Shown here: positions 2,519-44,988 of the stretch, one piece after another
Position numbering within the stretch: position 1 is the stretch's first letter
Layout of the letters: each line of letters begins with the position of its first letter
From: a virus
Reading direction: 5' to 3' (one strand)
Virus record (IMG/VR): IMGVR_UViG_3300021256_000006
Location: 35,954-99,953 of that record
Length of the DNA: 64,000 nt
Made by a program: the position numbers and the translations under genes
The notes under the pieces: generated by a model
Database searches by the model: none
What the model saw: the letters and a program-made list of their open reading frames with translations, nothing else
Told to the model about the DNA's origin: nothing

Positions 2519-2785
2519 ATGTTCCATTTAAACACCGACAAAACAATGAAGAAACATATCAAGAACGCAATTCAATACGTGAAAGAAAATCACGAATGGA
2601 GCGAAGCGTGTGAGCAACACGCATTGGAAATCATTGACAAATGCAGATGCCCTATTTCTCAGGCCTCCGACGAAATCACCTATGAAATTCAGCAGTTGAT
2701 GAATGACTACGGCGATGATCATGACTTGCCTGAAGGCTGGTGGATGGAAGATATAGACGAGGATGAAATATTTATGAGAATATAA
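2519..2785 (+). CDS. hypothetical protein
   Basis: 88-aa ORF abutting its neighbours on both sides. Confidence 0.55.
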
Positions 2786-2786
2786 T

Positions 2787-3401
2787 ATGGAAAAGACAAT
2801 TATTCAGCAGTTCAATGAACTGAAAGAGAAGCACCCAACGGCAATCCTCCTGTTCCGGTGTGGCGACTTCTACGTAACCTACGAGGATGATGCTCAAATC
2901 TGTGCAAACGTGTTGGGCATCACCCTTACCAAACGAACAAGCGACGGCACTCGCACGGCAGGTTTTCCTTACCATGCTCTTGACACATATCTTCCCAAAT
3001 TGGTACGATACGTGAATCAACCCGAAAGCATTATGAAACGTATCGCTATCTGTGACCAGTTGGAAGACCCACAGACCCAAAAACTTGTGAAGCGAGGCAG
3101 TAACGAATTAACCAAACAAGGAGGACTAACAATGAAACTTTTCCACGATGTAGGCATTAACGAGCCTTGCCGTGACATCAAAGTCAACGGCAGAAAAATC
3201 ATGGCAAACGTGTGGGGAGGGCAGACGGAAGTCACCCTCACCACATGGAGCGAAATCCGACGACTGGGGTTCAAGAAAAGAGAGCGAGCCTTCGGCAACC
3301 TTAACGACGGAACTCCCGCACTCTACTTTCAAGCATGGGACGAACAAAACAATAACCACTGGTTTCTCACCACAGAGAAACTTGAAGAGCTGGAGGACTG
3401 A
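2787..3401 (+). CDS. MutS domain I (mismatch-binding domain)-like stand-alone protein
   Basis: The N-terminal ~110 aa ('[17 protein letters not shown]...GITLTKR...[16 protein letters not shown]...[10 protein letters not shown]') aligns by eye with the E. coli MutS N-terminus ('LLFYRMGDFYELFYDDAK...ISLTKRG...AGIPYHAVENYLAKLV...VAICEQIGDP'). No ATPase or clamp domains follow. Confidence 0.75.
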
Positions 3402-3557: not shown

Positions 3558-4658
3558 ATGGAAACTATGACAGCAAACGGAGTGACTTACTACCAAGATT
3601 GGGAAAAGTCAGAGGGTCACATCTATATGGTAAAGCCCAAGACCATCAATCGCTACATAAAAATTAAAGAAGAGCATCCACGAGAAGAAGCCTACGGTGT
3701 GTTTTTTGCTTTCAGCAAGGAACAGTTTCAGGAAGGCTACAAATCGCTGGTGCGACGTGGTTACATCAAGGATGGCGACAAGATAACACCCGGTGCTATG
3801 GGCATCTATGGCACCGCTGATGAAATAGCACGATTCTTCGATTTCTACAATGAACGAGACAAGCGCATCGCTAAGGAGTGCGACCCACAAGAGGTGTATT
3901 TCTACGAGTGGAACAACCACGAATGTATGTTTGGCGATGATGACGATGTGGTGAAACTCATTGCAGACTACTTCGGCAAGGAAGCAGCCCACAAAATTCA
4001 TCGGGTGGGAGGTGGAAGGGACATCAACATTCTTGTTCCAATTACCGAACGAGACCACCACCTGCAAGCCCATGAGCATGACATCCTGCTTCTCTCACGG
4101 CTGAAGTATGACTGCGAAGGATTCCTCAGCGAAGGTGACTGCCGACACGCCAGACCCAGTGACCTGTGGGCAAAGGATTTGAAAATGCAGATAAAAAAGA
4201 TGCGAGAGTTGTTAGGAGGACTGCCCGATGACATCAAGGGAGAATCGCCAGTTACCGAGTCTGACATTGACGACTACGAGAAGAGGATGGTTGACGAACT
4301 CTGCAAGGAATTTTCCAAACCCAAATACAATCCTGCACCTGATACAACATTTGACGAGTACCACAACGCAGAAATCAATGACGTAGATTTATATTACCAA
4401 GACGATGACGGGAAATGGCAACGACCTACCAATGTGTGGTTTTCCAATGATTCCAGACGCTGGCATCTCAATGATGCCAACACACACGGCAGAGCATTCA
4501 CATCCTACCTTGGCAAGCATGGCACCACGTTGGCTCCAGTCTATTACATGAGTTGGGGGTCATTGACGAGAAGGCCCTACGTCAACCAGAGATTCTGCAA
4601 CGTCACCGCCCGCTACGACCATGAATCCGAACGACTTTACGATTTTTACAGAGAATAG
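3558..4658 (+). CDS. hypothetical protein (possibly a polyvalent-protein-associated domain)
   Basis: 366-aa ORF preceded by the conserved leader AAATTCATCATCTAAATCATCACAACTATGG. No catalytic motif recognised. Confidence 0.65.
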   Translation: METMTANGVTYYQDWEKSEGHIYMVKPKTINRYIKIKEEHPREEAYGVFFAFSKEQFQEGYKSLVRRGYIKDGDKITPGAMGIYGTADEIARFFDFYNERDKRIAKECDPQEVYFYEWNNHECMFGDDDDVVKLIADYFGKEAAHKIHRVGGGRDINILVPITERDHHLQAHEHDILLLSRLKYDCEGFLSEGDCRHARPSDLWAKDLKMQIKKMRELLGGLPDDIKGESPVTESDIDDYEKRMVDELCKEFSKPKYNPAPDTTFDEYHNAEINDVDLYYQDDDGKWQRPTNVWFSNDSRRWHLNDANTHGRAFTSYLGKHGTTLAPVYYMSWGSLTRRPYVNQRFCNVTARYDHESERLYDFYRE

Positions 4659-4685
4659 AAACAACAATTCAAATTCATCACAACT

Positions 4686-5576
4686 ATGGCAAAAGATTTT
4701 ATCAAACAATGGGATGGCAGACGGCTTGAAGATTGGGGAAGTGTAGTTTCCAAGGAGTTCAACCAATTCCAAAACGCTTTCAAGCGTGAGGTGGAACGTC
4801 TGGCACAAGAGGGTGGGGCAAAGCTGGTGAGTTATAGCAAAGGGCATTACGATATGAGCGGTTTCATAGAAAAGGATGGAATCTATGTGTATTTCAGCTA
4901 TGGAGCACTTGACCGCACCAAAGTGCAACTCACATCTGCATCCGACTTTATCTCTCCACTCTTGATGCGAACGGCCAAGCATGAAAAGGATTTTAGTGGA
5001 GGGTCAAACAACCATATCCTCTTCACACAGTTCCTGCCCACCATGCAACGACTGTTTAAGCAACAGCAACCAAGTGTAGTCACTACACAACCCGAACCTG
5101 TAAAGGAGGTGAAACCAAGTGTAGTCACCCCACAAAAGAGTTTAGACCGACGCATCTATGACAAGCTGCTGGAATTGGCTCAATGGGAATTTGAACAGAA
5201 TATGGAACTTGTCGGGCTTCCCGTTACAATGACAGAAGCCACTTTCACACTGTATGAACTGACGCATGATAAACATTCCAAATATGGGCCATTTACCTTT
5301 GTGGAAAAAGACCGATGGAAAAAATTTCATATTGAAGAAGACAACTTTAAGTGTAACTTTTTATCAAGTGAAGTGTTTGCAATAGCCTATAAGTTTGAAA
5401 ATCTTTGCAACATCAAACCTAAAGACAAGGCTCGTTTCCATTACGAGAAAATGAAGAAACCGGCAACGCCACTTGTCAAACAATCTTTGACAACTGAAGC
5501 CATGTGGCTCCATTATGCTAACCTCTTCTTCCTTTTCTTCAACTTTAACCAAGCAGAGGCACAACAAGCTGCCTAA
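4686..5576 (+). CDS. hypothetical protein
   Basis: 296-aa ORF with the same conserved leader. The C-terminal 'HYANLFFLFFNF' is encoded by a degenerate promoter-like DNA element also seen at 6924-6972. Confidence 0.65.
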   Translation: MAKDFIKQWDGRRLEDWGSVVSKEFNQFQNAFKREVERLAQEGGAKLVSYSKGHYDMSGFIEKDGIYVYFSYGALDRTKVQLTSASDFISPLLMRTAKHEKDFSGGSNNHILFTQFLPTMQRLFKQQQPSVVTTQPEPVKEVKPSVVTPQKSLDRRIYDKLLELAQWEFEQNMELVGLPVTMTEATFTLYELTHDKHSKYGPFTFVEKDRWKKFHIEEDNFKCNFLSSEVFAIAYKFENLCNIKPKDKARFHYEKMKKPATPLVKQSLTTEAMWLHYANLFFLFFNFNQAEAQQAA

Positions 5577-5653
5577 CCCCCAGGGTGTGTGAGTGTAGCA
5601 AATATCTCACACATCCACTAATTTCAAATTCATCATCTAAATCATCAACAATT

Positions 5654-8600
5654 ATGGCAACAAAACTACAAAGGCTTCGCGACAACATCGAAGCCATCAG
5701 GCACGCCCTGACATCCCCGCATTACGATGCCGACATCATGAACAAGTACACGGGATTTGGCGGCATGACTTTTCTCCTCAACAACTTGGAGAAGAAATCA
5801 TGGAGCAAGACTGACAAGCCCTGCTATGACGACACCGTGAAACTGCGCCAGCTGCTGCATGACAAGAGCGAGAACGAGAAACAATACGAGGCATGGATAC
5901 AGAGTCTGAAGGCAAGCACATCTACCGCCTACTACACACCAAGGGAGATTCCTCAAACGCTCTTCGACAATCTCTACCACATGGCAAAAGGTTGGTACGA
6001 CAGCAACATCTATCCCAAAAAGGTGCTTGACCCATCAGCAGGAACTGGAGTCTTCATGTGCTCTGTCCTCCAAGCCTCTCTGGATTCCGGCAACATCCCT
6101 AAGCAAGTGGGCTACGAACTTGACCTACTCACAGGAACTATCCTCAAACAAAGACTCCTGGGGCATGACATCCGCATCAAGGGTTTTGAGACCATCCCGA
6201 ATGAAGACCTCGGCACATTCGACCTCGTGACCACCAATGTTCCCTTCGGCAACATCAACGTGTTTGACCCTCTCTACACCAATAGCAAGGAGCAAGTGAA
6301 AAGGGATGCAGCAAAGATGATCCACCGCTACTATGTGCTGAAAGGTCTTGATTGCCTCCGCAATGGAGGAGTGCTTGCCTACATCATCACCAGCAACTAC
6401 ATCAACCGTGACAACGACCAATTGGCAGAAGCGCTGAAGCACGCCAACCTCGTCACCGCCATCCGATTTCCGAACAACCTCTTCAAGGAGGCGGGAACAG
6501 AAGTAGGGACCGACCTTCTCATACTCCAGAAGGACGAGCACAAGCAAGCTCTCACAGAAGACGAGCAGCAACTCCTCACACCTATGGAAATGGACGATTG
6601 CCCAACCAACCTCTACTTCAACAATCATCCCGACCACATCATTGCCACCTCCACCGAGATAGGCACCGACCCCTACGGAAAGCCTGGCTATATCTACTAC
6701 CACAAAGACGGAGTGCAAGGCGTAGCCGCAGACATGGGCCGCTTGCTCAAAGCGGAATTGCCAAACATTGACAAGTCTGCCTTTCAAAAGGGCCCCTCAC
6801 TCTCTCCATCTTCCTCCCTTGCAGTCAGCGGTTCCCCCGCTGACACCACTTCCCCCGCTCCCACCGCCAAGCATCCCATTCCTAATTCCTCATTCCTCAT
6901 TCCTAATTCCGAACCCCTCTTCTTCCACTATGCCAACAAGTTTTTCCTCTTCTTCACCTTTGCACCAAGCAAGCATCAAGCACCTGCAAGCAAAGAACAG
7001 AAACTGAAAAACTTGCACAAGTTATACACCGACCTCTACAATTACGAGGCAAGCTATCAGAACGAGGACGAAGAAGGGCGCTGCAAGTTGAATGCTTCTT
7101 ATGATTTGTTCGTCAGGTCTTACGGTTTCCTGAACGATTCCAAGAATGCTTCTCTTGCCAAGCGTTTAGGCATTACCGACTTGCTTGCCATTGAGCGTTA
7201 CGAGAATGGCACATGGGTAAAGGCAGACATCATGCTGGCACCCGTCGCCTTCTCCACCGACGAGGAACCGAAAGCGAGCTCACCCCAAGAGGCATTGGCA
7301 GCATCGCTGAATAAATACGGAAAGCCCAATATTGATTATATGCTCTCCATCACCACCTGTACCCGTGACCAACTTCTCAGCGAACTGCATGACGAGGTGT
7401 TCCTCAACCCCATCAACGGGCAATACGAAGTCAGGGCAAAGTTCCTCAGCGGAAATGTGATTGAGAAGATTGATGCAATCGAAAAACTTTCAGCTTCTCA
7501 ACTGTCAACTGCGACCTGTCAACTTTCGCTGAAGGCTCTCAAGTCTGTCATCCCCGCTCCCATTCCTTTTGAGGAACTTGACTTCAACCTTGGCGAGCGC
7601 TGGATTGACTGCAAGGTGTATGAGCGCTTCGCCAACGACTTCTTCTCCATGCCTGGCAACACTCCCGACATCGAGGTGCGCTACAATCCTCTCCTCGACC
7701 AGTATGCAGCAGGTCTCAGGAAATGGGACTGGAATGAGAAGATACGCACTCAGTACGCGGTCAAGAGTGAAGCATCCAAGACGCTTGACGGACTTGAAAT
7801 ATTCACTCATGCCCTGCATAATACAATACCCAAGTTGATGAAGTATCAACGAGACAAGGAAGGGCGCATCATGACGGACGAGAACTACGATAAAATTAAA
7901 ATAGAGGACTCGGAGAATATGCAGTTGGCAGCAACCAAGATTGAAGAAATCAGACAGGCATTTGAGGAGTGGCTACGCCGACAGCCAAGGGAGTTCAGGG
8001 ATGATTTGGCCAGCGTATACAACCATCGCTTCAACTGCTTTGTCAAGCCTAAATATGACGGTAGCCATCAGACATTCCCGGACCTCAACATGAAAGGGCT
8101 GAAAGAAAAGTATGGCATTGACCACATCTACGACAGCCAAAAGGATTGCGTCTGGATGCTCTTGCTGAATGGTGGTGGCATCTGCGACCACGAGGTAGGA
8201 AGCGGAAAGACACTCATCATGTGTATTGCAGCCCACGAGATGAAACGTCTCGGACTGTGCCACAAGCCAATGATAATAGGCATGAAGGCCAACGTGAGTG
8301 CCATAGCAGAAACATATCGGACAGCATATCCCAATGCTCGCATCCTCTTCGCTACAGAGGCTGACTACTCGGCAAGCAACCGTATGGCGTTCTTCAACAA
8401 CGCCAAAAACAACGACTATGACTGCATCATCATGAGCCACGACCAGTTCGGACGTATTCCACAGAGCGAAAAAATACAGCTCGACATCATGTGCGACGAA
8501 CTGCGACAGGTAGAAGACAGTCTGACAGCAATGGAGGATTGGGGCTACAAAGTGACTTCAAAAATGCTCCGTGGATTGGAGATTAGAAAGCGCAACCTTC

Positions 8601-10675
8601 ACGCAAAAATCATGAACCTCCGCAATTCTATCAATTCGAGGAAGGATGATATTGTGGACTTCGAGAGGCTGGGCATTGACCACATCTTCATTGACGAGAG
8701 CCACCAGTTCAAGAACCTCGGCTTTGTGACACGGCATGACCGCGTGGCTGGCATTGGCAACACACAGGGCAGCAAGCGTGCTTTCAATCTGTTGATGGCC
8801 ATCCGCACCATACAGAACCGCACAGGGCGTGACCTCGGTGCCACCTTCCTCAGTGGCACCACCGTTACTAATTCCCTCACAGAACTGTTCCTTCTCTTCA
8901 AGTATCTCCGGCCCAATGCACTTCGCAAACAAGCCATCACTTGCTTCGATGCTTGGGCTGCTATATTCACGAAGAAGAGCACGGAGTTCGAGTTCAATGT
9001 CACCAACTGCATCGTTCAGAAGGAGCGCTTCCGTTACTTTATCAAGGTGCCGGAACTCGCCATGTTCTACAACGAGATTACAGACTTCCGAACGGCAGAG
9101 GATGTCGGCATCGAACGACCCCAAAAGCATGCAAGACTGCTGAACATAAAGCCGACACCGGACCAAGAGGGCTTCATTGAGCGTCTGATGAAGTTTGCGC
9201 AGGGAGGTTCCCCTTCCCTGATATTCCGTGAAAGCCTTTCCGACAACGAGGAAAAGGCGCGTATGCTTATCTGTACCGACCTCGCTCGAAAGATGTCTCT
9301 GGATATGCGGCTGATTGACCCTCGCTTTGGTGATCATCCATCCAACAAGGCAAGCCAATGCGCCAACCTCGTCAAGAAGTATTATGATGAATATGACGAC
9401 CAACGTGGCACACAGCTCATCTTCTCCGACATATCCACATGGCAAAACAATACCGATTGGAGTGTGTACAGCGAAATCAAGCGAAAGCTGATGGACATGG
9501 GCATACCTGGCAGCGAAATCAGGTTCATTCAGGAGTGTAAGAACGACCACCAAAAACAATTGCTCATTGAGCAGGTCAACCTCGGATATGTGCGTGTCCT
9601 CTTTGGCTCCACATCCATGCTGGGTACCGGAGTGAACCTCCAGCAGCGAGTGGTGGCCGTGCATCACCTCGACACACCGTGGCGACCTTCCGACCTCGAA
9701 CAGAGAGACGGACGGGCCATCCGGAAAGGAAACGAAGTGGCACGGCTCTATGCCAACAACCAAGTAGATGTTATCATCTATGCTGTTGAACGCTCGTTGG
9801 ACTCTTACAAGTTCAATCTCCTGCACCTCAAACAAACCTTCATCAACCAACTCAAACGAGGACAACTCGGAGTGAGAACGATTGACGAGGGCAGCATGGA
9901 CGAGAACGGCATGAACTTCTCGGAGTACATGGCTATTCTTTCCGGCAACACCGACTTGCTGGAACGTGCCAAACTGGAGAAGCGCATTGCCATGCTGGAG
10001 GCCGAACGCAAGAACTTCTACCGTGACCAGCGAGAACAAGAGGAAAAAATGGAAACGCTGAAAAAGGATAACGAGCTCTACAAAAATCACCTTGCAGACG
10101 CCCAAGCCGACTTTGCCAAGTTCAACAAAGCAAGGCGCCTCGATGAAGAGGGCAATGTAGTGAACGACCTCCGTCTGGATGGTCTCGCACTCAGCGGTTC
10201 CCCCGCTGAGATACAAACCCTCCTCGGCAACCACCTCATCAAAATTGCCAACACCGCCAGAACACAAGATGCCCACCTTCCCATCGGCTCCATCTATGGA
10301 TTCAAGGTGCTGGTCAAGACGGTGGAGACAGCAACGATGGACGGCAATCCGCAGTACGCTAATATGTTCTTTGTCAGCAGCGACACACTCATGTATTCTT
10401 ACAATAATGGCTACATCAATCGCAACTCTCCCAAGGCATCAGCACTCTACCCGCTGAACGCCTTGCAGCGCATCCCGGAAATCATCACTGGGTGGATGGA
10501 GAAAATCGAAAGCAACGAGAACAGCATCAAGCAGATTGCATCTATCCTTTCCGCAACGACTGAATGGTCAAAGGAGGACCGTTTGAAGCAGCTGAAGAAT
10601 GACCTCAAACTTCTTGACAAGAAGATTGAGGAAGACATGAAGAAAAAGGACGAGCCCACCAAGAAAGCAGCCTAA
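5654..10675 (+). CDS. fused N6-adenine DNA methyltransferase / SNF2(SF2)-like helicase (polyvalent-type)
   Basis: Start chosen at ATG 5654, behind the conserved leader. Methyltransferase-like motifs are 'DPSAGTGVF' and 'TTNVPFG'. Helicase motifs are 'EVGSGKTL' (Walker A), 'IDESHQFKN' (DExH), 'GSTSMLGTGVNLQ' and 'QRDGRAIRKGN'. Confidence 0.85.
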   Translation: MATKLQRLRDNIEAIRHALTSPHYDADIMNKYTGFGGMTFLLNNLEKKSWSKTDKPCYDDTVKLRQLLHDKSENEKQYEAWIQSLKASTSTAYYTPREIPQTLFDNLYHMAKGWYDSNIYPKKVLDPSAGTGVFMCSVLQASLDSGNIPKQVGYELDLLTGTILKQRLLGHDIRIKGFETIPNEDLGTFDLVTTNVPFGNINVFDPLYTNSKEQVKRDAAKMIHRYYVLKGLDCLRNGGVLAYIITSNYINRDNDQLAEALKHANLVTAIRFPNNLFKEAGTEVGTDLLILQKDEHKQALTEDEQQLLTPMEMDDCPTNLYFNNHPDHIIATSTEIGTDPYGKPGYIYYHKDGVQGVAADMGRLLKAELPNIDKSAFQKGPSLSPSSSLAVSGSPADTTSPAPTAKHPIPNSSFLIPNSEPLFFHYANKFFLFFTFAPSKHQAPASKEQKLKNLHKLYTDLYNYEASYQNEDEEGRCKLNASYDLFVRSYGFLNDSKNASLAKRLGITDLLAIERYENGTWVKADIMLAPVAFSTDEEPKASSPQEALAASLNKYGKPNIDYMLSITTCTRDQLLSELHDEVFLNPINGQYEVRAKFLSGNVIEKIDAIEKLSASQLSTATCQLSLKALKSVIPAPIPFEELDFNLGERWIDCKVYERFANDFFSMPGNTPDIEVRYNPLLDQYAAGLRKWDWNEKIRTQYAVKSEASKTLDGLEIFTHALHNTIPKLMKYQRDKEGRIMTDENYDKIKIEDSENMQLAATKIEEIRQAFEEWLRRQPREFRDDLASVYNHRFNCFVKPKYDGSHQTFPDLNMKGLKEKYGIDHIYDSQKDCVWMLLLNGGGICDHEVGSGKTLIMCIAAHEMKRLGLCHKPMIIGMKANVSAIAETYRTAYPNARILFATEADYSASNRMAFFNNAKNNDYDCIIMSHDQFGRIPQSEKIQLDIMCDELRQVEDSLTAMEDWGYKVTSKMLRGLEIRKRNLHAKIMNLRNSINSRKDDIVDFERLGIDHIFIDESHQFKNLGFVTRHDRVAGIGNTQGSKRAFNLLMAIRTIQNRTGRDLGATFLSGTTVTNSLTELFLLFKYLRPNALRKQAITCFDAWAAIFTKKSTEFEFNVTNCIVQKERFRYFIKVPELAMFYNEITDFRTAEDVGIERPQKHARLLNIKPTPDQEGFIERLMKFAQGGSPSLIFRESLSDNEEKARMLICTDLARKMSLDMRLIDPRFGDHPSNKASQCANLVKKYYDEYDDQRGTQLIFSDISTWQNNTDWSVYSEIKRKLMDMGIPGSEIRFIQECKNDHQKQLLIEQVNLGYVRVLFGSTSMLGTGVNLQQRVVAVHHLDTPWRPSDLEQRDGRAIRKGNEVARLYANNQVDVIIYAVERSLDSYKFNLLHLKQTFINQLKRGQLGVRTIDEGSMDENGMNFSEYMAILSGNTDLLERAKLEKRIAMLEAERKNFYRDQREQEEKMETLKKDNELYKNHLADAQADFAKFNKARRLDEEGNVVNDLRLDGLALSGSPAEIQTLLGNHLIKIANTARTQDAHLPIGSIYGFKVLVKTVETATMDGNPQYANMFFVSSDTLMYSYNNGYINRNSPKASALYPLNALQRIPEIITGWMEKIESNENSIKQIASILSATTEWSKEDRLKQLKNDLKLLDKKIEEDMKKKDEPTKKAA
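6824..6844 (+). repeat. 8-bp-stem hairpin (GTCAGCGG-TTCCC-CCGCTGAC) inside the MTase-helicase ORF
   Basis: The 17-nt core CAGCGGTTCCCCCGCTG is identical to the copies at 10190 and 43622. The outer base pair covaries. Confidence 0.8.
10190..10210 (+). repeat. 8-bp-stem hairpin (CTCAGCGG-TTCCC-CCGCTGAG) inside the MTase-helicase ORF
   Basis: Identical 17-nt core. It encodes 'SGSPA', as at 6824. Confidence 0.8.
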
Positions 10676-13226: not shown

Positions 13227-13445
13227 ATGAATTTACTCCAACTATCAGCAGTTGCACAGGCATACTACGAGGGGCTTCGCGCCCCCAGCCTGGCGCAAGG
13301 GTGGGAAAAGTATGTCGCCACCAACGGCACAACGTGTATGTTTGTTCACAGCGACTACAACCCACAACCAGGCGAGGCAGTCTTTTTCCTCGCAACGAGA
13401 AACCGTCAAATCAGTTGTCAACTCTACAAACACGTTGAACCATGA
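13227..13445 (+). CDS. hypothetical protein
   Basis: 72-aa ORF whose stop overlaps the next start (ATGA at 13442). Confidence 0.5.
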   Translation: MNLLQLSAVAQAYYEGLRAPSLAQGWEKYVATNGTTCMFVHSDYNPQPGEAVFFLATRNRQISCQLYKHVEP

Positions 13446-13915
13446 AGGCTCCACAAAAACCGCTCTTCATCATCGACTCGTCTCACACTCATGGACGAGG
13501 GACAGAGACAGAATGGGTGAGCTGCACATCATCAAGCTGTCCATTTGTGGCAAGTGTTGTCGTTGTCAGTGAGCAAGAGTACAACAGGCACTATGACCCT
13601 GCTGATACAATGACCGCTTACTCGGACGTACAAAATGGTATGCGCCTGATGGTTCACGTCACCAACATTGACACCGAGCATGACCCTTCACAACTCCGTA
13701 CCTTGCTGCGCAAACTTGTGAAGGAGTTAATGCTTCGGAAAGCCATCGTTGAGTATTCACCAGAGGCACCGTCAGACGAAGCCATCATCAAGTTCATTGA
13801 GATTCTGCAAGGGCAGAACCGCGAGAACCTGCGCACGGAACCTAACGAGCAGACACACCGAACGGTGTATGCGCTCCTGAAGAAGATGCACGATGACTAC
13901 ACGAACAAGCAATAA
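13442..13915 (+). CDS. hypothetical protein
   Basis: 157-aa ORF followed by an 8-bp hairpin terminator at 13925-13948. Confidence 0.6.
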   Translation: MKAPQKPLFIIDSSHTHGRGTETEWVSCTSSSCPFVASVVVVSEQEYNRHYDPADTMTAYSDVQNGMRLMVHVTNIDTEHDPSQLRTLLRKLVKELMLRKAIVEYSPEAPSDEAIIKFIEILQGQNRENLRTEPNEQTHRTVYALLKKMHDDYTNKQ

Positions 13916-13924
13916 CAAACGAAG

Positions 13925-13948
13925 GGAGGGAGCCAACAGACTCCCTCC
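13925..13948. terminator. bidirectional stem-loop terminator
   Basis: GGAGGGAG-N8-CTCCCTCC, a perfect 8-bp stem. It lies 3' of the + gene 13442..13915 and 3' of the minus-strand Cas12a-repeat RNA. Confidence 0.5.
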
Positions 13949-14011
13949 TAAGATACTAATTTGTGAGCAATTCACATACCGCTTTTGCGGTTATCTACAA
14001 TAGTAGAAATT
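13925..14011 (-). ncRNA. solitary Cas12a (type V-A) crRNA repeat unit: Racr-like or crRNA-like small RNA
   Basis: Minus strand 14011->13993 reads AATTTCTACTATTGTAGAT, the 19-nt Cas12a handle (UCUAC-UAUU-GUAGA stem-loop). A TACCTTTG box lies 8 nt upstream. About 45 nt of unique sequence follow, then the terminator hairpin. There is no second repeat. Confidence 0.7.
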
Positions 14012-14019
14012 CAATGCTG

Positions 14020-14027
14020 CAAAGGTA
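14020..14027 (-). promoter_or_regulatory. Bacteroidota -7 box (TACCTTTG) upstream of the Cas12a-repeat RNA
   Basis: The reverse complement of 14020-14027 is TACCTTTG, matching TAnnTTTG. It could instead be a remnant of the 5' 'ACCUUUU' part of a native Cas12a repeat. Confidence 0.45.
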
Positions 14028-14089
14028 CTGAGTATGCACGGTGTGAACAAACAAAAAAAGATGTTTAACGACATAAAACCACTACAATT

Positions 14090-14251
14090 ATGACTGCAAA
14101 ACAACTCGACCGCCTCATTGACGAGCTTCTTAATCTAACAGAAGAAGAACGTAAGCAATTCCTAAGCCGGATGCGACAAGTGATAAAGTCCACAGCTTGC
14201 AACTGTGAAGACCTTGCCAAAGCCTTTTCTAATTTCACGCAAGAAGAATGA
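14090..14251 (+). CDS. small acidic protein (53 aa), candidate anti-CRISPR by context
   Basis: Hand-translated ORF (MTAKQLDRLIDELLNLTEEERKQ...). It is translationally coupled (ATGA overlap) to the downstream XRE HTH gene and is divergent from the Cas12a repeat unit. Confidence 0.45.
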   Translation: MTAKQLDRLIDELLNLTEEERKQFLSRMRQVIKSTACNCEDLAKAFSNFTQEE

Positions 14252-14469
14252 ATACAAGAACTAATATCGGCAAGCGCATTGCCGAACTCCGAGAACAACA
14301 AAATCTGTCGCAGAGAGAGCTGGCCCGTCGATGCAACATTGACCAGGCTCACATATCCAGAATAGAGCGAGGACTGTTATCGCCATCTCTCGACACGCTT
14401 GCAGAAATAGCGGAAACACTTGATGCCAAGGTGGAACTTGTCCCCTGCGCTCAACGGTTTTCCCGTTGA
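14248..14469 (+). CDS. XRE-family helix-turn-helix transcriptional regulator (Aca-like by context)
   Basis: 'IGKRIAELREQQNLSQRELARRCNIDQAHISRIERG' is a typical Cro/CI-type HTH. The C-terminus and stop codon lie inside hairpin element 14444-14468. Confidence 0.8.
   Translation: MNTRTNIGKRIAELREQQNLSQRELARRCNIDQAHISRIERGLLSPSLDTLAEIAETLDAKVELVPCAQRFSR
14444..14468 (+). repeat. hairpin element, CAACGG/CCGTTG stem variant
   Basis: CCTGCGCTCAACGGTTTTCCCGTTG, with a compensatory G->A / C->T change in the stem. Confidence 0.8.
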
Positions 14470-41175: not shown

Positions 41176-43065
41176 ATGACTAAAGAAATAAGACCATTGC
41201 AGCGGTATAATGCGAATACCGAACAGACAGAAATTTTCTATCCTGCCACAACGACCGACGCGATTGCGCACCCCACAAAAAGAAAGTCGCTAACAAACGT
41301 GATTTCTGACATAGAAGCAAGTATTGCCGACATCGAGACGATTGCCGAGGGCTATGTGCGTGTGGCTGGTTCGTCAAGTCCTGCTCTCTCTTACAAGTCA
41401 TACAAGTATCACGAACAGGGCGGCTTCGGACGTGAATCTGTGTTCTCGCTGTTCTACCCCTGTCTGGTGGGAACACCGCTGACAGGCAGTGGCACAGAAG
41501 GCAAGGTGCTTCATGTGCTTCAGAAGTTCGGTGCAAGAACTATCGACGGAAGCCCGAAATGGCTTGACATCTACGGAACACCTCATGCCATCGACGGCTC
41601 GGAGGGTGACGTGCTGATTGTGAACATTGAACCATTTTACAGCATCAACGGCAAGCACACAATCGAGGGCACGGAGTATGATGTATTCCTGATGTCGCGC
41701 TCACCATTCACCTGGCAGGGCATCGAGGCAGAGCACATGGAGAAGTTCGGATGGAGCCCTGACTACTGCGTGAGCCATACGGACACCGACAACGTGGTGC
41801 GTATGCACTCAGTTTATAACCCTGCGTGGAACGGATCATACCAAGCACCTCAAGGCGTGACTGGCAAGTACGTCTATACCACCGACCCTGAGACGGGCGA
41901 CATTGTGGAAACCTATGATGCAAACGAGACACTGCTGGGTGGTGCAGGTGGCTTGCACTCTACTGACATCGACCTGACTACGGGTGAACAACGAGCCATG
42001 AACATGAACGCTGACCCGACGAAGACCGTGCCATGGATGAACCAGACGGCAGAGGGTTGCAACCGACTGATGTCGCTGATACTGGCAGAGGGTGGCACGT
42101 TCGATGCGCACAACGCAGCTCGTATGGGTAGTGGTTTCTCATCCAATGACCCCGCCACCGCAGCAGGCGACTGGGAACAGGCGGGCAGCGGTGCGAAGAA
42201 CGGTTTGCGCGTGAAGGACAAGAACGACGCATGGAAGTACTACGGAATGAACGGCAACGTCCGCTTCCTGACGGGTGCAACGTCGGGTGCGGTGTATGCT
42301 GCCAACGTTATCAACTCTTGGCGAAATCCGTGGCACATTCTGGAGGCGCACCGTGCGATGTCGTATGCTATTGAGAACGACGTGCACGAGCTGGAGTGGT
42401 TTGTGTTCGAGGGCAACAAGTACAAGTACCGCAGCGTGCAAGGCTTCAACGGTCCGAGTCACGGAGAAATGACCTGTGTGGTGTGGAAGCTCATGGCAAC
42501 ACAGGCTGGTGCCAATGCCATCGACCCGACAGACAACGCAACGAGCATCGCAGGCAATCGCGTGGAAATACTCGTCAGCACAGCACTCGTTCACGGCATG
42601 ACTACGCAGGTATCACCTTCGTGGTGGACTTCAGGACTGCTGTTCACGGAAGATGAGAGCGGACAGTATGAGTGCTTCATTGAGCGCGACCAGGCAGAAC
42701 TGGTGAAGGGCATTGCCGCTGACAATTACGACCCAGCAACACCACGAAACTTCGAGACTATCTACGATCATGTGCTCACCGTACAGAAGGGCGAAGGCTA
42801 CGCTAAGAACTATCTGAACGGAGCGCTGATGCTGCCTGATACCAATGCCAACAAGACTGGGGCAGGCTTGCATACCTATGTTGGCAAATACAACTGGTTT
42901 ACGGGTAGCAATGCAAGTGCTGGGAAGCGGTCGGTCCGTGGCTTCCGGCGCGGCGCCCTCGCTAACTACGCGGTCCTGTCTCCGTTGGCGCTGAACGCTT
43001 ACTACTCGCCCTCGGGCGCGGGCACGGGCCTCGGCTTCGGCACCTGTTGTCGCATAGCGGAATAG
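41176..43065 (+). CDS. DGR target protein with a C-terminal variable (C-type-lectin-like) region
   Basis: The last ~40 codons (42927-43049) form the variable repeat matching the template repeat at 43299-43421. The TR-encoded 'RGFRRGNNANNTN...NIGFGN' follows the usual Asn(AAC)-rich CLec-type pattern. Confidence 0.85.
   Translation: MTKEIRPLQRYNANTEQTEIFYPATTTDAIAHPTKRKSLTNVISDIEASIADIETIAEGYVRVAGSSSPALSYKSYKYHEQGGFGRESVFSLFYPCLVGTPLTGSGTEGKVLHVLQKFGARTIDGSPKWLDIYGTPHAIDGSEGDVLIVNIEPFYSINGKHTIEGTEYDVFLMSRSPFTWQGIEAEHMEKFGWSPDYCVSHTDTDNVVRMHSVYNPAWNGSYQAPQGVTGKYVYTTDPETGDIVETYDANETLLGGAGGLHSTDIDLTTGEQRAMNMNADPTKTVPWMNQTAEGCNRLMSLILAEGGTFDAHNAARMGSGFSSNDPATAAGDWEQAGSGAKNGLRVKDKNDAWKYYGMNGNVRFLTGATSGAVYAANVINSWRNPWHILEAHRAMSYAIENDVHELEWFVFEGNKYKYRSVQGFNGPSHGEMTCVVWKLMATQAGANAIDPTDNATSIAGNRVEILVSTALVHGMTTQVSPSWWTSGLLFTEDESGQYECFIERDQAELVKGIAADNYDPATPRNFETIYDHVLTVQKGEGYAKNYLNGALMLPDTNANKTGAGLHTYVGKYNWFTGSNASAGKRSVRGFRRGALANYAVLSPLALNAYYSPSGAGTGLGFGTCCRIAE
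42927..43049 (+). repeat. DGR variable repeat (VR)
   Basis: 123 nt collinear with the TR at a constant offset of 372 nt. All 24 differences fall at TR adenines. Confidence 0.9.
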
Positions 43066-43109
43066 AAAACGTAAACCCCGCGAGCAAGGCGAGCGCGAAA
43101 ACGAAAACT

Positions 43110-43126
43110 GCGCGGCTGAGCCGCGC
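43110..43126 (+). other. GC-rich hairpin downstream of the VR
   Basis: GCGCGGC-TGA-GCCGCGC, a 7-bp stem about 60 nt after the VR end. It may be the DGR target-recognition hairpin or cruciform. Confidence 0.4.
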
Positions 43127-43155
43127 CCGCTGAGCAATAGCGAAGGCTATAATAC

Positions 43156-43174
43156 TGCCGCAAGGCGGCATTTT
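43156..43174 (+). terminator. Rho-independent terminator after the DGR target gene
   Basis: TGCCGC-AAG-GCGGCA followed by TTTT. Confidence 0.5.
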
Positions 43175-43298
43175 GCCCGAATAGTGTGGAGATGTGGTGC
43201 GACATCGTTGAAGCAAAAATCCATGCCACCGACCAAAGCGCACAAGGGAATCGGAGTACCCGTCAGGTGGTGAGGTTGAAATAAGGCGGCTGCACTGT

Positions 43299-43421
43299 AC
43301 GGTCGGTCCGTGGCTTCCGGCGCGGCAACAACGCTAACAACACGAACCTGTCTCCGTTGACGATGAACGCTAACAACTCGCCCTCGAACGCGAACACGAA
43401 CATCGGCTTCGGCAACTGAAA
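43299..43421 (+). repeat. DGR template repeat (TR)
   Basis: Non-coding copy of the VR. It holds 33 adenines, 24 of which differ in the VR. In the VR frame it is rich in AAC codons. Confidence 0.9.
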
Positions 43422-43621
43422 CGCAGTAACGAAATACATAAGCCCTCCAATGCTTGACCTGAGCATGAAGAGGCAGGTGCAGAGCCTCGCTGACGAAGAG
43501 AGCGGAACAACGCAGGAAAAGGTGCTAAGACCACCAGCCGACCGCGCAAGAATGAGCGAAGGAAAGGGTAGGCTGCAAGGCGTTCAAAAACCTTGCTATC
43601 GGCGCAACAGGTCATAAAGCG

Positions 43622-43642
43622 TTCAGCGGTTCCCCCGCTGAA
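43622..43642 (+). repeat. 8-bp-stem hairpin (TTCAGCGG-TTCCC-CCGCTGAA) 18 nt upstream of the RT start
   Basis: Identical 17-nt core, located in the TR-RT spacer. Confidence 0.8.
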
Positions 43643-43659
43643 AAACAAAGAAAAGAACA

Positions 43660-44988
43660 ATGGGGACATCCACATGGAACAACATCACCACCGGCCTTCA
43701 CGCTGCTGTATATGACAGCTACATGGCCAAGAGCTCACGCCAACGCGCCAAGCGTGAGGTGGTGGAGGTCATGGCAGATGTGGACGGGTTCTGCCAACGG
43801 AAGCAGGCAGAGCTGGCAAGCGGCAGCTACCATGTGGGTGACTATCGTCACTTCCAGTTGAAGGACAAGAAGAAGGAGCGTAGCATCTCTGTACTGCCCT
43901 ATGAAGACCGCTGCGTGCAGAATGCTATCAAGGATGCCATAGAGCCGCTATTGCTCCGTCAGATGACCGACGACATGATGGGAGGTCTGCCTGGTTGCGG
44001 CGTGCTGGCAAGCGACAAGCGGCACCAGGTGGTGGCACGGATGCGGGTGATGCTGAACGACCGCTCGCTGAGGTATTGCTTGCAAGGTGACATCGAGAAG
44101 TTCTACGACCATGTGGATAATGTCATCAGTATGCGGCTCATTGAGAAGCAGGTGAAAGACAAGCGCACAAGGGCGGTTATCCGTCAACACCTCTTCAACC
44201 AGAAGCGGCTCGCTATTGGTGATCCATTCAGTCACCTTATCGCCAATCTCAATACGTCGGTCATTATTCGCAAGGCAAAGGAGTTGTACGGCAATAGCAT
44301 CAAGGTGGTCAATTTTGCCGACGACTTCATAGCCTTCAGCAGAGACAAGACAATCCTCAATGCCCTGCGGAAAGATATGAAGATATGGGCAAAGGCGATG
44401 CGGTTGCATTACAAGCCGATGTACGTGCGTCCCATAGACCCGCAACCAGGAAAGGAATACAACCCTATTATCTTCTGCGGCTACAAGTGCGGGCGTGGTT
44501 ATGTTCACCTCACCCCGCGCACTAAGAAACGATACGTCAAGACCCGACACAAGGAACGCAGTATTGGCTCCTATCAGGGCATTATCGGCGTGGCTGACAC
44601 GAAACATCTGAGACTAAAAGTACAAATTAACGATAACAAAACTATGAGCGAGAAAATCAGGCGACCATTTGCAGGACGCCCCATGAAGATAGAAACGATG
44701 GAAGGTATCAACCACACCATTGTGGACTTTCAGAAACGCAGCAGCAATCAGAAGGACTGCGACAGTTACTATCACATCCAGGCACTTGCCGACGGGCTGG
44801 GGCTAATAGTCTATTCGACGGGCGCACAGAAAATCTGCAAGTATCTCGACACCAAGAGAAGGACGGACATCCCATTGCGTGACATGAAGATAGTGCACGA
44901 CTGGAGTGGATTCTACTACGATGGCACCGTATATACCGATGCCGAGGAAGAGGAAATGATTCGCAAACAATTTAACATATCGAAATAA
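43660..44988 (+). CDS. DGR reverse transcriptase
   Basis: RT motifs 'ISVLPYEDRCVQNAI', 'LQGDIEKFYDHVD', 'IGDPFSHLIANL' and 'VNFADDFIAF' (YxDD equivalent). It lies directly downstream of the TR. Confidence 0.9.
   Translation: MGTSTWNNITTGLHAAVYDSYMAKSSRQRAKREVVEVMADVDGFCQRKQAELASGSYHVGDYRHFQLKDKKKERSISVLPYEDRCVQNAIKDAIEPLLLRQMTDDMMGGLPGCGVLASDKRHQVVARMRVMLNDRSLRYCLQGDIEKFYDHVDNVISMRLIEKQVKDKRTRAVIRQHLFNQKRLAIGDPFSHLIANLNTSVIIRKAKELYGNSIKVVNFADDFIAFSRDKTILNALRKDMKIWAKAMRLHYKPMYVRPIDPQPGKEYNPIIFCGYKCGRGYVHLTPRTKKRYVKTRHKERSIGSYQGIIGVADTKHLRLKVQINDNKTMSEKIRRPFAGRPMKIETMEGINHTIVDFQKRSSNQKDCDSYYHIQALADGLGLIVYSTGAQKICKYLDTKRRTDIPLRDMKIVHDWSGFYYDGTVYTDAEEEEMIRKQFNISK

Follow-up and report, generated by a model that had tools for sequence, protein, structure and literature searches.

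A Predicted Phage Small-RNA Gene Combining a Cas12a crRNA Handle with the Start of a Type II-C Repeat, a Putative Decoy for CRISPR Effectors

Results

A Predicted Small-RNA Gene with a Minimal Type V-A Handle

We analyzed a 64,000-nucleotide (nt) stretch of viral DNA (positions 35,954 to 99,953 of IMG/VR record IMGVR_UViG_3300021256_000006; hereafter, the window) and, within it, a predicted small-RNA gene that carries repeat parts of CRISPR RNAs (crRNAs) of two types, V-A and II-C. The gene runs on the minus strand from ~14015 to ~13917, in the 174-bp gap between genes p157 and p53; the gap is flanked by plus-strand open reading frames (ORFs; 13442..13915 and 14090..14251), so that the RNA gene is antisense to both. 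From position 14051, the minus strand reads, 5' to 3', TTTG, 20 nt, TACCTTTG, CAGCATTG, AATTTCTACTATTGTAGAT, A, and ACCGC-AAAA-GCGGT, followed by ATGTGAATTGCTCACAAATTAGTATCTTA, GGAGGGAGTCTGTTGGCTCCCTCC, and CTTCGTTTG. Its features are:

14048..14051, minus strand: −33 box TTTG of a Bacteroidota-type promoter, 20 nt upstream of TACCTTTG
14020..14027, minus strand: −7 box TACCTTTG (consensus TAnnTTTG), read directly, 8 nt upstream of the handle
14012..14019, minus strand: 8-nt gap with the expected transcription start (leader of 0 to ~4 nt), from the box-to-start spacing of Bacteroides
13993..14011, minus strand: mature type V-A (Cas12a) crRNA handle AAUUUCUACUAUUGUAGAU, 19 nt, exact match
13978..13991, minus strand: hairpin 1, ACCGC-AAAA-GCGGU, in guide position for both effectors, from the predicted fold
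13950..13976, minus strand: type II-C repeat-like segment UGUGAAUUGCUCACAAAUUAGUAUCUU, corresponding to nt 3–29 of a 47-nt repeat, 24/27 identity
13925..13948, minus strand: intrinsic terminator GGAGGGAGUC-UGUU-GGCUCCCUCC, then CUUCGUUUGU, from a terminator scan (10 pairs) and present in the fold

Cas12a recognizes the pseudoknotted 3' part of its repeat, 19–20 nt long, which is kept as the 5' handle of the mature crRNA. An earlier reading of the sequence (the original prediction) had placed exactly such a handle at 14011..13993 on the minus strand and judged a chance match improbable; indeed, AATTTCTACTATTGTAGAT has a single exact site in the window and no further site at up to three mismatches, against a chance expectation of 0.01. 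The 5' 17 nt of a full V-A repeat are missing from the window element, and the promoter stands in their place; with 19 of ~36 repeat nt present, the element lies below the near-full-length match of a criterion such as that of SRUFinder. The TTTG/TAnnTTTG consensus is that of Bacteroides promoters, and of the six occurrences of TTTG-N18-22-TAnnTTTG in the window (both strands), one starts at 14051. TACCTTTG is kept in L290 and L302–L306 (L-numbers denote the individual loci that we compared, i.e., viral contigs and loci from metagenomes and metagenome-assembled genomes, or MAGs), the same box stands 3–8 nt ahead of the handle in 6 of 67 unrelated solitary units, and the gap between box and handle is 3–8 nt in relatives. 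A 102-nt transcript model folds into four separate hairpins (−37.1 kcal/mol, z = −5.0), the UCUAC/GUAGA stem of the handle among them, and the window has a complete promoter motif and a terminator, both conserved in homologues. The remaining parts of the original prediction also stood up: the −7 box 8 nt upstream of the handle (TACCTTTG at 14027..14020, to which the TTTG box at 14051..14048 can now be added), the ACCGC/GCGGT hairpin at 13991..13978, the terminator hairpin at 13925–13948 (called on the minus strand, with 10 pairs), and the lack of a second repeat or a cas gene in the window, where a relaxed pattern search found no further V-A repeat and scans of the large ORFs found no Cas domain. 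Gathering and permissive scans of Rfam returned no family for the element.

The Segment Downstream of the Handle Resembles a Type II-C Repeat

The ~45 nt downstream of the handle had been described as unique. This does not hold for 13976..13950, which, though single in the window, matches a type II-C repeat at 24 of 27 positions. The match came from a protospacer search of plasmids in PLSDB: eight matches in one Phocaeicola massiliensis record turned out to be an array (8 copies, period 76–77 nt) of the 47-nt repeat GTTGTGATTTGCTTTCAAATTAGTATCTTTGAACCATTGAAAACAAC, and the interpretation of the element therefore changed to that of a chimera. The array adjoins a 1504-aa Cas9 (RuvC_III 2.6e-62, HNH, bridge helix) and Cas1. 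The alignment is ungapped and in the crRNA sense, the same sense as the handle, with repeat sense deduced from the position of the anti-repeat and the orientation of the array relative to cas9; 0 of 100 shuffles gave a comparable match, and no other site in the window comes closer than 9 mismatches. Across all collected loci, fuzzy matching to the II-C core recovered only the window copies, L012, L013, and the true repeats of L150 and L228. A near-identical Bacteroides fragilis repeat has been published as BfragL47-II and labeled type II (PMC6390457), and the Racr repeat database labels this repeat family II-C, including a GTTGTGAATTGCT variant (PMC10651486). A matching host II-C repeat would be expected to begin GTTGTGAATTGCTCAC(A/G)AATTAGTAT.

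In type II systems, the crRNA keeps the 5' part of the repeat at its 3' end, paired with the trans-activating crRNA (tracrRNA). The anti-repeat of the Phocaeicola tracrRNA, located immediately upstream of cas9, pairs with nt 1–26 of the repeat, and the part of the repeat copied in the phage RNA is the part paired by the anti-repeat. Pairing of the window segment with this heterologous anti-repeat is predicted at −23.6 kcal/mol (native repeat, −33.4; shuffles, −11.1 ± 2.8), a value equaled by 1 of 1000 shuffles, and co-folding leaves the V-A stem, hairpin 1, and the terminator undisturbed. Neither in sequence nor in fold does the window RNA contain an anti-repeat or a tracrRNA scaffold, only the terminator following the II-C segment, and it would thus depend on host tracrRNA. 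Since a crRNA has the order handle then spacer in type V-A, and spacer then repeat in type II, one segment could be in guide position for both effectors; the predicted ~95-nt RNA is thus a chimera of V-A handle, structured pseudo-spacer, II-C repeat start, and terminator.

Might the intergenic region merely hold promoter and operator elements of the flanking genes, and resemble crRNA parts by chance? TGTGA-N5-TCACA (13962..13976) is a helix-turn-helix (HTH)-type palindrome in the control region of the divergent p53 operon, as this explanation would have it; against it, however, stand the expectation of 0.01 for the 19-mer and the 0 of 100 shuffles for the 27-mer, the placement of both segments on one strand, in the right order, between promoter and terminator, and the recurrence of the layout in unrelated contigs, and we consider it effectively refuted. 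The palindrome was first taken as an operator or a plain RNA hairpin; it is now placed in the II-C-like segment, within which it forms hairpin 2 (13962..13976), and may still serve as an operator.

A separate observation concerns the Bacteroidales II-C repeat itself: its nt 23–30 read TATCTTTG, the Bacteroidota −7 box consensus (L288 2043..2642; L289 17716..17760), which suggests repeat-embedded crRNA promoters, to judge from the motif. Such promoters occur in other II-C systems.

Homologous Chimeras

Chimeras homologous to that of the window are found in L290, L304/L305, L306, and L012, and these independent homologues (L290, L304–L306, L012) have in common the layout beside a conserved divergent HTH regulator, which in the window is a 73-aa protein (HTH73; see below). 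L290 is an unrelated viral contig of 15.5 kb, in which the unit reads TTACCTTTG, 6 nt, the window's handle, a pseudo-spacer, the II-C-like part, and a terminator; between window and L290, 19/19 positions of the handle and 27/30 of the II-C part are identical, whereas the linked HTH proteins are only 45% identical. L302–L306 were found by a search for HTH73 relatives and have flanks 93%–95% identical to the window. L302 and L303 carry the window version, with single-nucleotide polymorphisms that spare the handle, hairpin 1, and the II-C segment, and L304 and L305 carry a full-length V-A-like repeat. The versions compare as follows:

Window, L302, L303: handle loop TATT; pseudo-spacer 14–17 nt; hairpin ACCGC-AAAA-GCGGT; II-C-like part (GTA)TGTGAATTGCTCACAAATTAGTATCTT
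L290: handle loop TATT; pseudo-spacer 29 nt; hairpin GCCGC-TCTG-GCGGT; II-C-like part GTTGTGAATTGCTCACGAATTAGTATTTT
L306: handle loop TATG; pseudo-spacer 29 nt; hairpin GCCGC-AGGT-GCGGC; II-C-like part GTTGTGATTTGCCTTCAAATTAT
L304, L305: handle loop TATC; pseudo-spacer 33 nt; no similar hairpin; II-C-like part GTTGTGAATTGCTCGCAAATTAGTATC
L012: handle loop TATT; pseudo-spacer 8 nt; no hairpin; II-C-like part TTTGTGAATTGCTTTCACAAAAG

At the terminator position, L290 and L304–L306 have a G+C hairpin followed by a T-run. In L013 and L033, the two modules are not fused but arranged in tandem, and each unit has a promoter and a terminator of its own. Among GenBank phages, megablast found no close relatives of the region.

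A motif G(A/G)GTTTT(T)CAC is conserved just 5' of the II-C-like segment in L290, L304, and L306, whereas the window has lost it by deletion; the L290 copy pairs with the beginning of the II-C-like segment, and the Phocaeicola tracrRNA has, 13 nt downstream of its anti-repeat, the complementary sequence UGUGAAAAC. Elsewhere, phage contigs L291, L294, L296, L300 (e.g., L294 3712..3734), and L301 (1625..1647) carry a solitary copy of the first 23–31 nt of the canonical Bacteroides II-C repeat, with a terminator within ~60–90 nt and no V-A part; we regard these as candidate type II crRNA mimics.

The Pseudo-Spacer Is a Covarying Hairpin with No Target Found

The pseudo-spacer of the window is 14–17 nt long and forms hairpin 1. 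The first 24 nt after the handle have a minimum free energy of −7.7 kcal/mol, a stability reached by 1% of 962 true spacers, all taken from arrays that share the handle, and as a group the pseudo-spacers of solitary viral handles are more structured than these 962 spacers (Mann-Whitney p = 3e-4). When 20 units of several lineages were aligned, both sides of the post-handle helix changed in 4 of 6 pairs, and the covariation score of 0.271 exceeds that of 500 of 500 shuffles and of every slid control. Covariation was scored by direct pair counting; a covariance model was dropped, as the invariant handle would dominate its score, and MAFFT misaligned the terminator arms of this handle-hairpin-terminator family. 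The first pair of hairpin 1 is A-U in the window, G.U in L290, and G-C in L306, and the loops are unrelated.

The original prediction had offered, besides a decoy, a hijacking crRNA that directs host Cas12a against a competitor or a host locus; extended to both effectors, this would be a hybrid guide with which Cas12a and/or Cas9 cleave a host locus or a competing mobile element. Mini-arrays by which phages target rival viruses have been described (PMC11656645), close strains differ in the pseudo-spacer, as they do in spacers, and the 29–33-nt pseudo-spacers of relatives have the typical length of a spacer and are correctly flanked for both effectors. On the other hand, the pseudo-spacer is only 14–17 nt in the window and 8 nt in L012, below the length that Cas12a and Cas9 need for cleavage (homologues range from 8 to 33 nt), and in the window it forms the −7.7 kcal/mol hairpin. 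Nor did the proposed search for targets of the sequence following GTAGAT, with an adjacent protospacer-adjacent motif (PAM), return anything: we found no protospacer for the window pseudo-spacer in IMG/VR (exact 20-mer), in INPHARED/GenBank phages or PLSDB plasmids (blastn), or in the window and any collected locus (local blast), and none for the pseudo-spacers of L290, L304, and L306 in phages or collected loci. What the window RNA offers is one V-A handle, one partial II-C repeat, and a hairpinned 14–17 nt without a protospacer in these searches, and this does not amount to a functional crRNA. Because the pseudo-spacer is short, structured, and without targets found, we regard a cleaving guide as distinctly unlikely.

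Seed Matches Recover CreR-like Host Elements, and None for the Window

A short guide may still regulate. Cracr-type regulators have the same architecture of single repeat, pseudo-spacer, and terminator, as described for CracrVA1 in a preprint (Liu et al., bioRxiv 10.1101/2024.10.29.618823); in this case, the RNA would mimic a host CreR, its seed bringing Cas12a to the cas12a promoter (or Cas9 to that of cas9) with no cut made, thus combining silencing with competition for the effector. We searched for a pseudo-spacer seed beside a TTTV PAM near cas12a, the predicted target form for the window being TTTV+AACCGCAAA(A). The search recovered its positive controls, L167 (11 nt with TTTA, ~140 nt away), L242, L189, and L196. 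These are host-encoded solitary V-A repeats (L167 ~5074..5234, in a Muribaculaceae MAG; L242 ~7538..7700; L189; L196) in which a seed of 9–11 nt matches a TTTA-flanked site of the same locus at a distance of ~140 nt, as is characteristic of CreR autoregulators. In addition, the pseudo-spacer of viral L014/L077/L089 is nearly identical to the Eubacterium L189 element and is therefore Cracr-like.

The presence of CreR-like seeds with TTTA self-matches in Bacteroidales and other hosts (L167, L242, L189, L196), and the resemblance of the viral L014 family to the L189 CreR, speak for such a regulator, and the cognate host of the phage may lie outside the tested loci. For the window, however, no seed of at least 9 nt with a TTTV PAM is present in 120 host V-A loci, the sole 8-nt match being at chance level and within an array, and no match to a host cas12a promoter or CreR turned up in the loci searched. 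A scan of JGI metagenomes likewise gave no host twin (handle plus seed), its sole match lying inside an unrelated ORF. That match, L244 1833..1857, was considered as a CreR twin and set aside as coincidence: it falls within a 233-aa metagenome ORF that holds TCTACCATCTGTAGATAACCGCAAAATCGGTAT, 22/23 identical to the window from GTAGAT onward, with no PAM or promoter context. Moreover, the seeds are wholly different among strains with flanks ~95% identical (AACCGCAAAA, ATAATCGTAC, and AGCCGCAGGT), and the seed is locked in a hairpin of which the stem, not the sequence, is conserved. Since the seeds are not conserved among near-identical strains and are hairpinned, we disfavor a Cracr-type regulator; it is unlikely, if less so than a cleaving guide.

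Solitary Handles Are Widespread and Occur in Varied Composites in a Shared Slot

Compared with the Cas12a repeats of plausible hosts, as had been proposed, the exact 19-mer equals the 3' end of the repeats in arrays of ~70 genome loci, many of them Bacteroidales; array taxa are Prevotella, Prevotellamassilia, Bacteroidaceae, Muribaculaceae, Paludibacteraceae, and Alistipes, and the 5' 17 nt of the repeats vary freely. More than 119 IMG/VR contigs hold the 19-mer, nearly all in single copy, with arrays only in L040 and L107. Many viral contigs have the same layout, from promoter and handle to small hairpin and terminator, in keeping with the solitary repeat unit that had been predicted, and a TAnnTTTG box begins 9–20 nt before the handle in 6 of 67 distinct solitary units.

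On its other side, the RNA gene is bordered by two syntenic markers, which point to a wider family of composites:

13227..13915, plus strand: p72 and p157, syntenic markers convergent with the RNA gene; homologues 55% and 27%–29% identical
L110 10777..10965, antisense: composite of I-B, I-C, and V-A repeat parts, an example

Neither p72 nor p157 could be assigned to a functional family, and PDB gave nothing for p157, whose relatives were found by an alignment-based search (a single-sequence search found none). Homologues of p72/p157 occur in phages of ~100 kb, and an antisense repeat unit follows them in L088, L094, L110, and 21 of 39 related loci (L245–L283, with units in, e.g., L245, L246, L248, and L269; 18 lack a unit). 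The order within the syntenic unit is I-B repeat, I-C-like repeat, 13-nt hairpin, V-A handle, covarying hairpin, and terminator; the handle loop is TATT, TATA, or TATC, the I-B repeat is identical to the I-B solitary repeat of the Racr supplement, and in L269 the composite lacks the I-C part. Because the same slot holds different repeat composites in distant phages, the slot 3' of p72/p157 is a cassette site for repeat-derived RNAs of varying composition. The combinations observed are V-A + II-C, I-B + I-C + V-A, and I-C + V-A.

The last of these is seen in L003, L022, L036, L038, L044, L048, and L080 (e.g., L080 3296..3170, minus strand), where a promoter is followed by the I-C repeat GTCAACCCT...GTGGATTGAAAC, 14 nt, the V-A handle, a hairpin, and a terminator; in L074 the order is reversed, with the V-A handle preceding the I-C repeat.

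A V-A spacer of MAG L136 matches the phage group with p72/p157 homologues, at L259 1609..1637 (TTTG PAM) and L265 1600..1628 (TTCG), and a Saccharibacteria V-A spacer (L145) matches L086 and L101 (TTTG PAM), both of which carry a solitary handle. To judge from these spacers, which match handle-carrying phages, phages with solitary handles are under V-A pressure. The L136 and L145 matches have 2–4 mismatches and look like escape variants, and MAG L136 is labeled Lachnospiraceae, yet the matched phages use Bacteroidota-type promoters. Against the window phage itself, we found no spacer among 956 V-A and 159 type II spacers.

These data also bear on whether the element is an inert remnant or recombination substrate, either a scrap of host CRISPR (e.g., a V-A/II-C array junction) or a stretch of homology for integration into arrays. 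Integration of solitary repeats into arrays has been proposed (PMC10651486), and type II-like repeats lie within ~120–200 nt of V-A arrays in two Bacteroidota MAGs, one of Bacteroidales and one of Flavobacteriaceae (L150 2817..2930; L228 ~2700..2830), so that single hosts can carry both repeat types; this arrangement is a possible source of V-A/II-C junctions. A remnant does not account well, however, for the retention of only the mature-crRNA portions, for a complete promoter fused at the handle with a terminator following, for RNA segments far better conserved than the adjacent protein, for a hairpin that covaries, or for a slot common to other multi-type repeat units and a conserved regulator. 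We consider it very unlikely, more so than a cleaving guide.

Discussion

A Putative Decoy for Two Class 2 Effectors

Of the readings weighed above, it is reasonably probable, judging from the features of the element, that the RNA is a Racr-type decoy crRNA against Cas12a, and probably also against Cas9/tracrRNA. Because the RNA keeps the mature-crRNA repeat parts of two systems around one pseudo-spacer, a decoy for both is the most economical interpretation. A Bacteroidota sigma-type promoter would start transcription at, or a few nt before, the 19-nt handle; Cas12a would bind the handle and become loaded with a hairpinned, too short, and targetless guide; host tracrRNA would pair with the II-C segment, so that tracrRNA and/or Cas9 would be occupied by an inert guide; and by both routes, the RNA would compete with phage-targeting crRNAs. 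More tentatively, and as a proposal toward which we do not quite lean, the element may be a bifunctional crRNA mimic that, with one pseudo-spacer shared by both arms, disables two class 2 effectors of Bacteroidales hosts, a member of a modular, rapidly shuffling cassette in a fixed slot under an Aca-like HTH, of a kind that current solitary-repeat finders would mostly miss because only the repeat parts of mature crRNAs are kept.

Several points weigh against the decoy. We infer transcription, binding, and inhibition alike from the sequence. The terminator ends in a poor U-run (CUUCGUUUGU); the repeats that the II-C segment resembles are heterologous, with 3 mismatches and a one-base insertion at the GTTGTG start; and hairpin 2 could sequester the II-C-like segment or be a DNA operator for the HTH protein. 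The 29–33-nt pseudo-spacers of relatives have the length of real spacers, and a guide role is possible there. A dual decoy presupposes that a single host carries a V-A system using the handle together with a II-C system whose repeat and tracrRNA match. The scan for cas genes covered 84 kb of the ~99.5-kb phage genome. Finally, a CreR-type element is present in the Bacteroidales V-A locus L167, and, according to the Cracr preprint, CreR-type autoregulation can blunt pure decoys (10.1101/2024.10.29.618823).

Relation to Known RNA Anti-CRISPRs

Solitary-repeat RNA anti-CRISPRs (Racrs), V-A members included, were validated in 2023 (Camara-Wilpert et al., Nature 2023, PMC10651486), and the decoy reading of the original prediction fits this published class. 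Like RacrVA1–3, the window element is a phage-borne solitary V-A repeat that has a promoter of its own and no cas genes, and that is proposed to compete with crRNAs for the effector (PMC10651486). Unlike them (Moraxella prophages, 34–36 of 36 repeat nt), it keeps the 19-nt mature handle only, with the promoter replacing the 5' part, and it adds a Bacteroidota setting, a covarying post-handle hairpin, and a fused II-C repeat start. The SRUFinder catalogue lists near-full-length repeats not associated with other partial repeats, so the form seen here would probably be missed; near-full-length II-C solitary repeats are also catalogued (PMC10651486).

CracrVA1 resembles the window element in its single repeat-like handle, spacer-like segment, terminator, and native promoter (Liu et al., bioRxiv 10.1101/2024.10.29.618823), and Cracrs include multiplexed units against several CRISPR types in one transcript (10.1101/2024.10.29.618823). 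A Cracr, however, needs a PAM-proximal match of at least 9–10 nt to a cas/creT promoter or host CreR, for which we found no counterpart in the window element, and the target phyla that the preprint lists do not include Bacteroidota, with no type II component described in the sections read (10.1101/2024.10.29.618823). Host CreR/CreA elements (L167, L242, L189, L196) are similar as well, in that a degenerate single repeat is combined with a short guide and a terminator, but they are host-encoded and lie beside cas12a, with a seed matching a site ~140 nt away beside TTTA; for the phage-borne window element, we found no match of this kind. The vsgRNAs are phage small RNAs that engage type II systems (II-A, II-C) and lie in anti-CRISPR islands with anti-CRISPR (Acr) and anti-CRISPR-associated (Aca) genes (bioRxiv 10.64898/2026.06.01.729453); in them, the tracrRNA scaffold is joined to a crRNA-like part, and their guide is directed at the cas9 promoter (10.64898/2026.06.01.729453). 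The window RNA, in contrast, has a crRNA repeat start only, with no anti-repeat or scaffold, and does not classify as a vsgRNA; term searches of that preprint found no mention of Bacteroidota, Cas12a, or chimeras (10.64898/2026.06.01.729453). Viral solitary repeat units and mini-arrays are likewise repeat-derived elements directly downstream of a promoter with no cas link (Faure et al. 2019, as cited in PMC10651486; PMC11656645), but they are of a single type or carry real spacers, whereas here partial repeats of two CRISPR types are fused around one pseudo-spacer. In the Racr paper, the sections read of the Cracr preprint, and term searches of the vsgRNA preprint, we found neither a bare V-A handle fused to a type II repeat start nor Bacteroidota examples. 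What was known before, then, is that solitary V-A repeats act as RNA anti-CRISPRs; what is new is the minimal, promoter-fused, two-system chimera.

Catalogues of RNA anti-CRISPRs rest on near-full-length solitary repeats. The present element indicates that Bacteroidales phages can trim the repeat to its effector-binding module, attach it directly to a promoter, and unite modules for unrelated CRISPR types within one transcript of <100 nt, and it suggests that searches with mature-handle fragments would reveal many more RNA anti-CRISPRs. If a two-system decoy works, one tiny gene would blunt several host systems together, and it would provide a compact natural scaffold to switch off Cas12a and Cas9 jointly.

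The Neighboring Operon and the Phage

Divergent from the RNA gene lies a two-gene operon:

14090..14251, plus strand: p53, 53-aa ORF divergent from the RNA gene, candidate Acr; no family match
14248..14469, plus strand: HTH73, 73-aa Xre-type HTH regulator, Aca-like; HTH_3 E = 4e-17, overlaps p53 by 4 nt

A variable small ORF upstream of a conserved HTH gene is the usual acr-aca layout, and it is the layout of 14090..14469, where such an ORF lies directly upstream of HTH73. For p53, we found no family, known-protein, or PDB match; it is conserved in L303 (68%) and L306 (81%) and replaced in L304 by an unrelated 130-aa ORF (L304 2328..2720), with the HTH region 95% identical at the DNA level. 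The 130-aa protein has a weak zinc-finger match, and the version of the RNA gene changes along with the swapped ORF. In L290, the neighbor is a 141-aa protein with an HTH 45% identical to HTH73 (E = 1e-14), divergent and 67 nt from the RNA gene, and HTH73 homologues lie 1.5–1.8 kb from the solitary handles in L038 and L080. Compared with solved Aca proteins, HTH73 gave no specific match (PDB returned generic Xre matches only), and for neither gene of the operon did we find a homologue among known Acr or Aca proteins. The CasPR family (bioRxiv 10.64898/2026.02.23.707548) was set aside for HTH73, as CasPRs have CapR/AP2 domains. By its arrangement, the divergent operon of small ORF and HTH gene is probably a co-regulated acr-aca unit with p53 as a candidate Acr; like p53, the 130-aa protein of L304 is a candidate for a new protein anti-CRISPR against Bacteroidales systems.

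An anti-restriction-type cluster (window 3558..10675; L284 5973..9273) lies upstream of the RNA gene. It encodes an LPD11/DUF7659 protein and a polyvalent protein of 1696 aa (N6-methylase plus helicase), and it extends just beyond the window with PcfJ and an ArdC-N/MPTase protein. Candidate racr genes are often found close to acr genes (PMC10651486), and a Racr-type decoy would fit the position of the element in an anti-restriction neighborhood and beside an acr-aca-like operon.

The window is part of a phage of ~99.5 kb that encodes a tape-measure protein, a diversity-generating retroelement (DGR), and many orphan genes, and that is present in four public assemblies, 100% identical over the region and thus without comparative signal. 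Its G+C content is ~47%, Shine-Dalgarno-like motifs are rare (10 of 52 long ORFs), and promoters are of Bacteroidota type. No Cas domain was found in the large ORFs of the window, and no Cas12a-sized gene in 20 kb more (largest ≤471 aa), so that no phage-encoded Cas12a was found in 84 kb of the ~99.5-kb genome. The DGR (41176..44988) comprises a reverse transcriptase (43660..44988; RVT_1 1.9e-15), a template repeat (43300..43418), and a variable repeat (42928..43046) at the 3' end of a 629-aa ORF (41176..43065); all of the 20 differences between template and variable repeat fall on template adenines.

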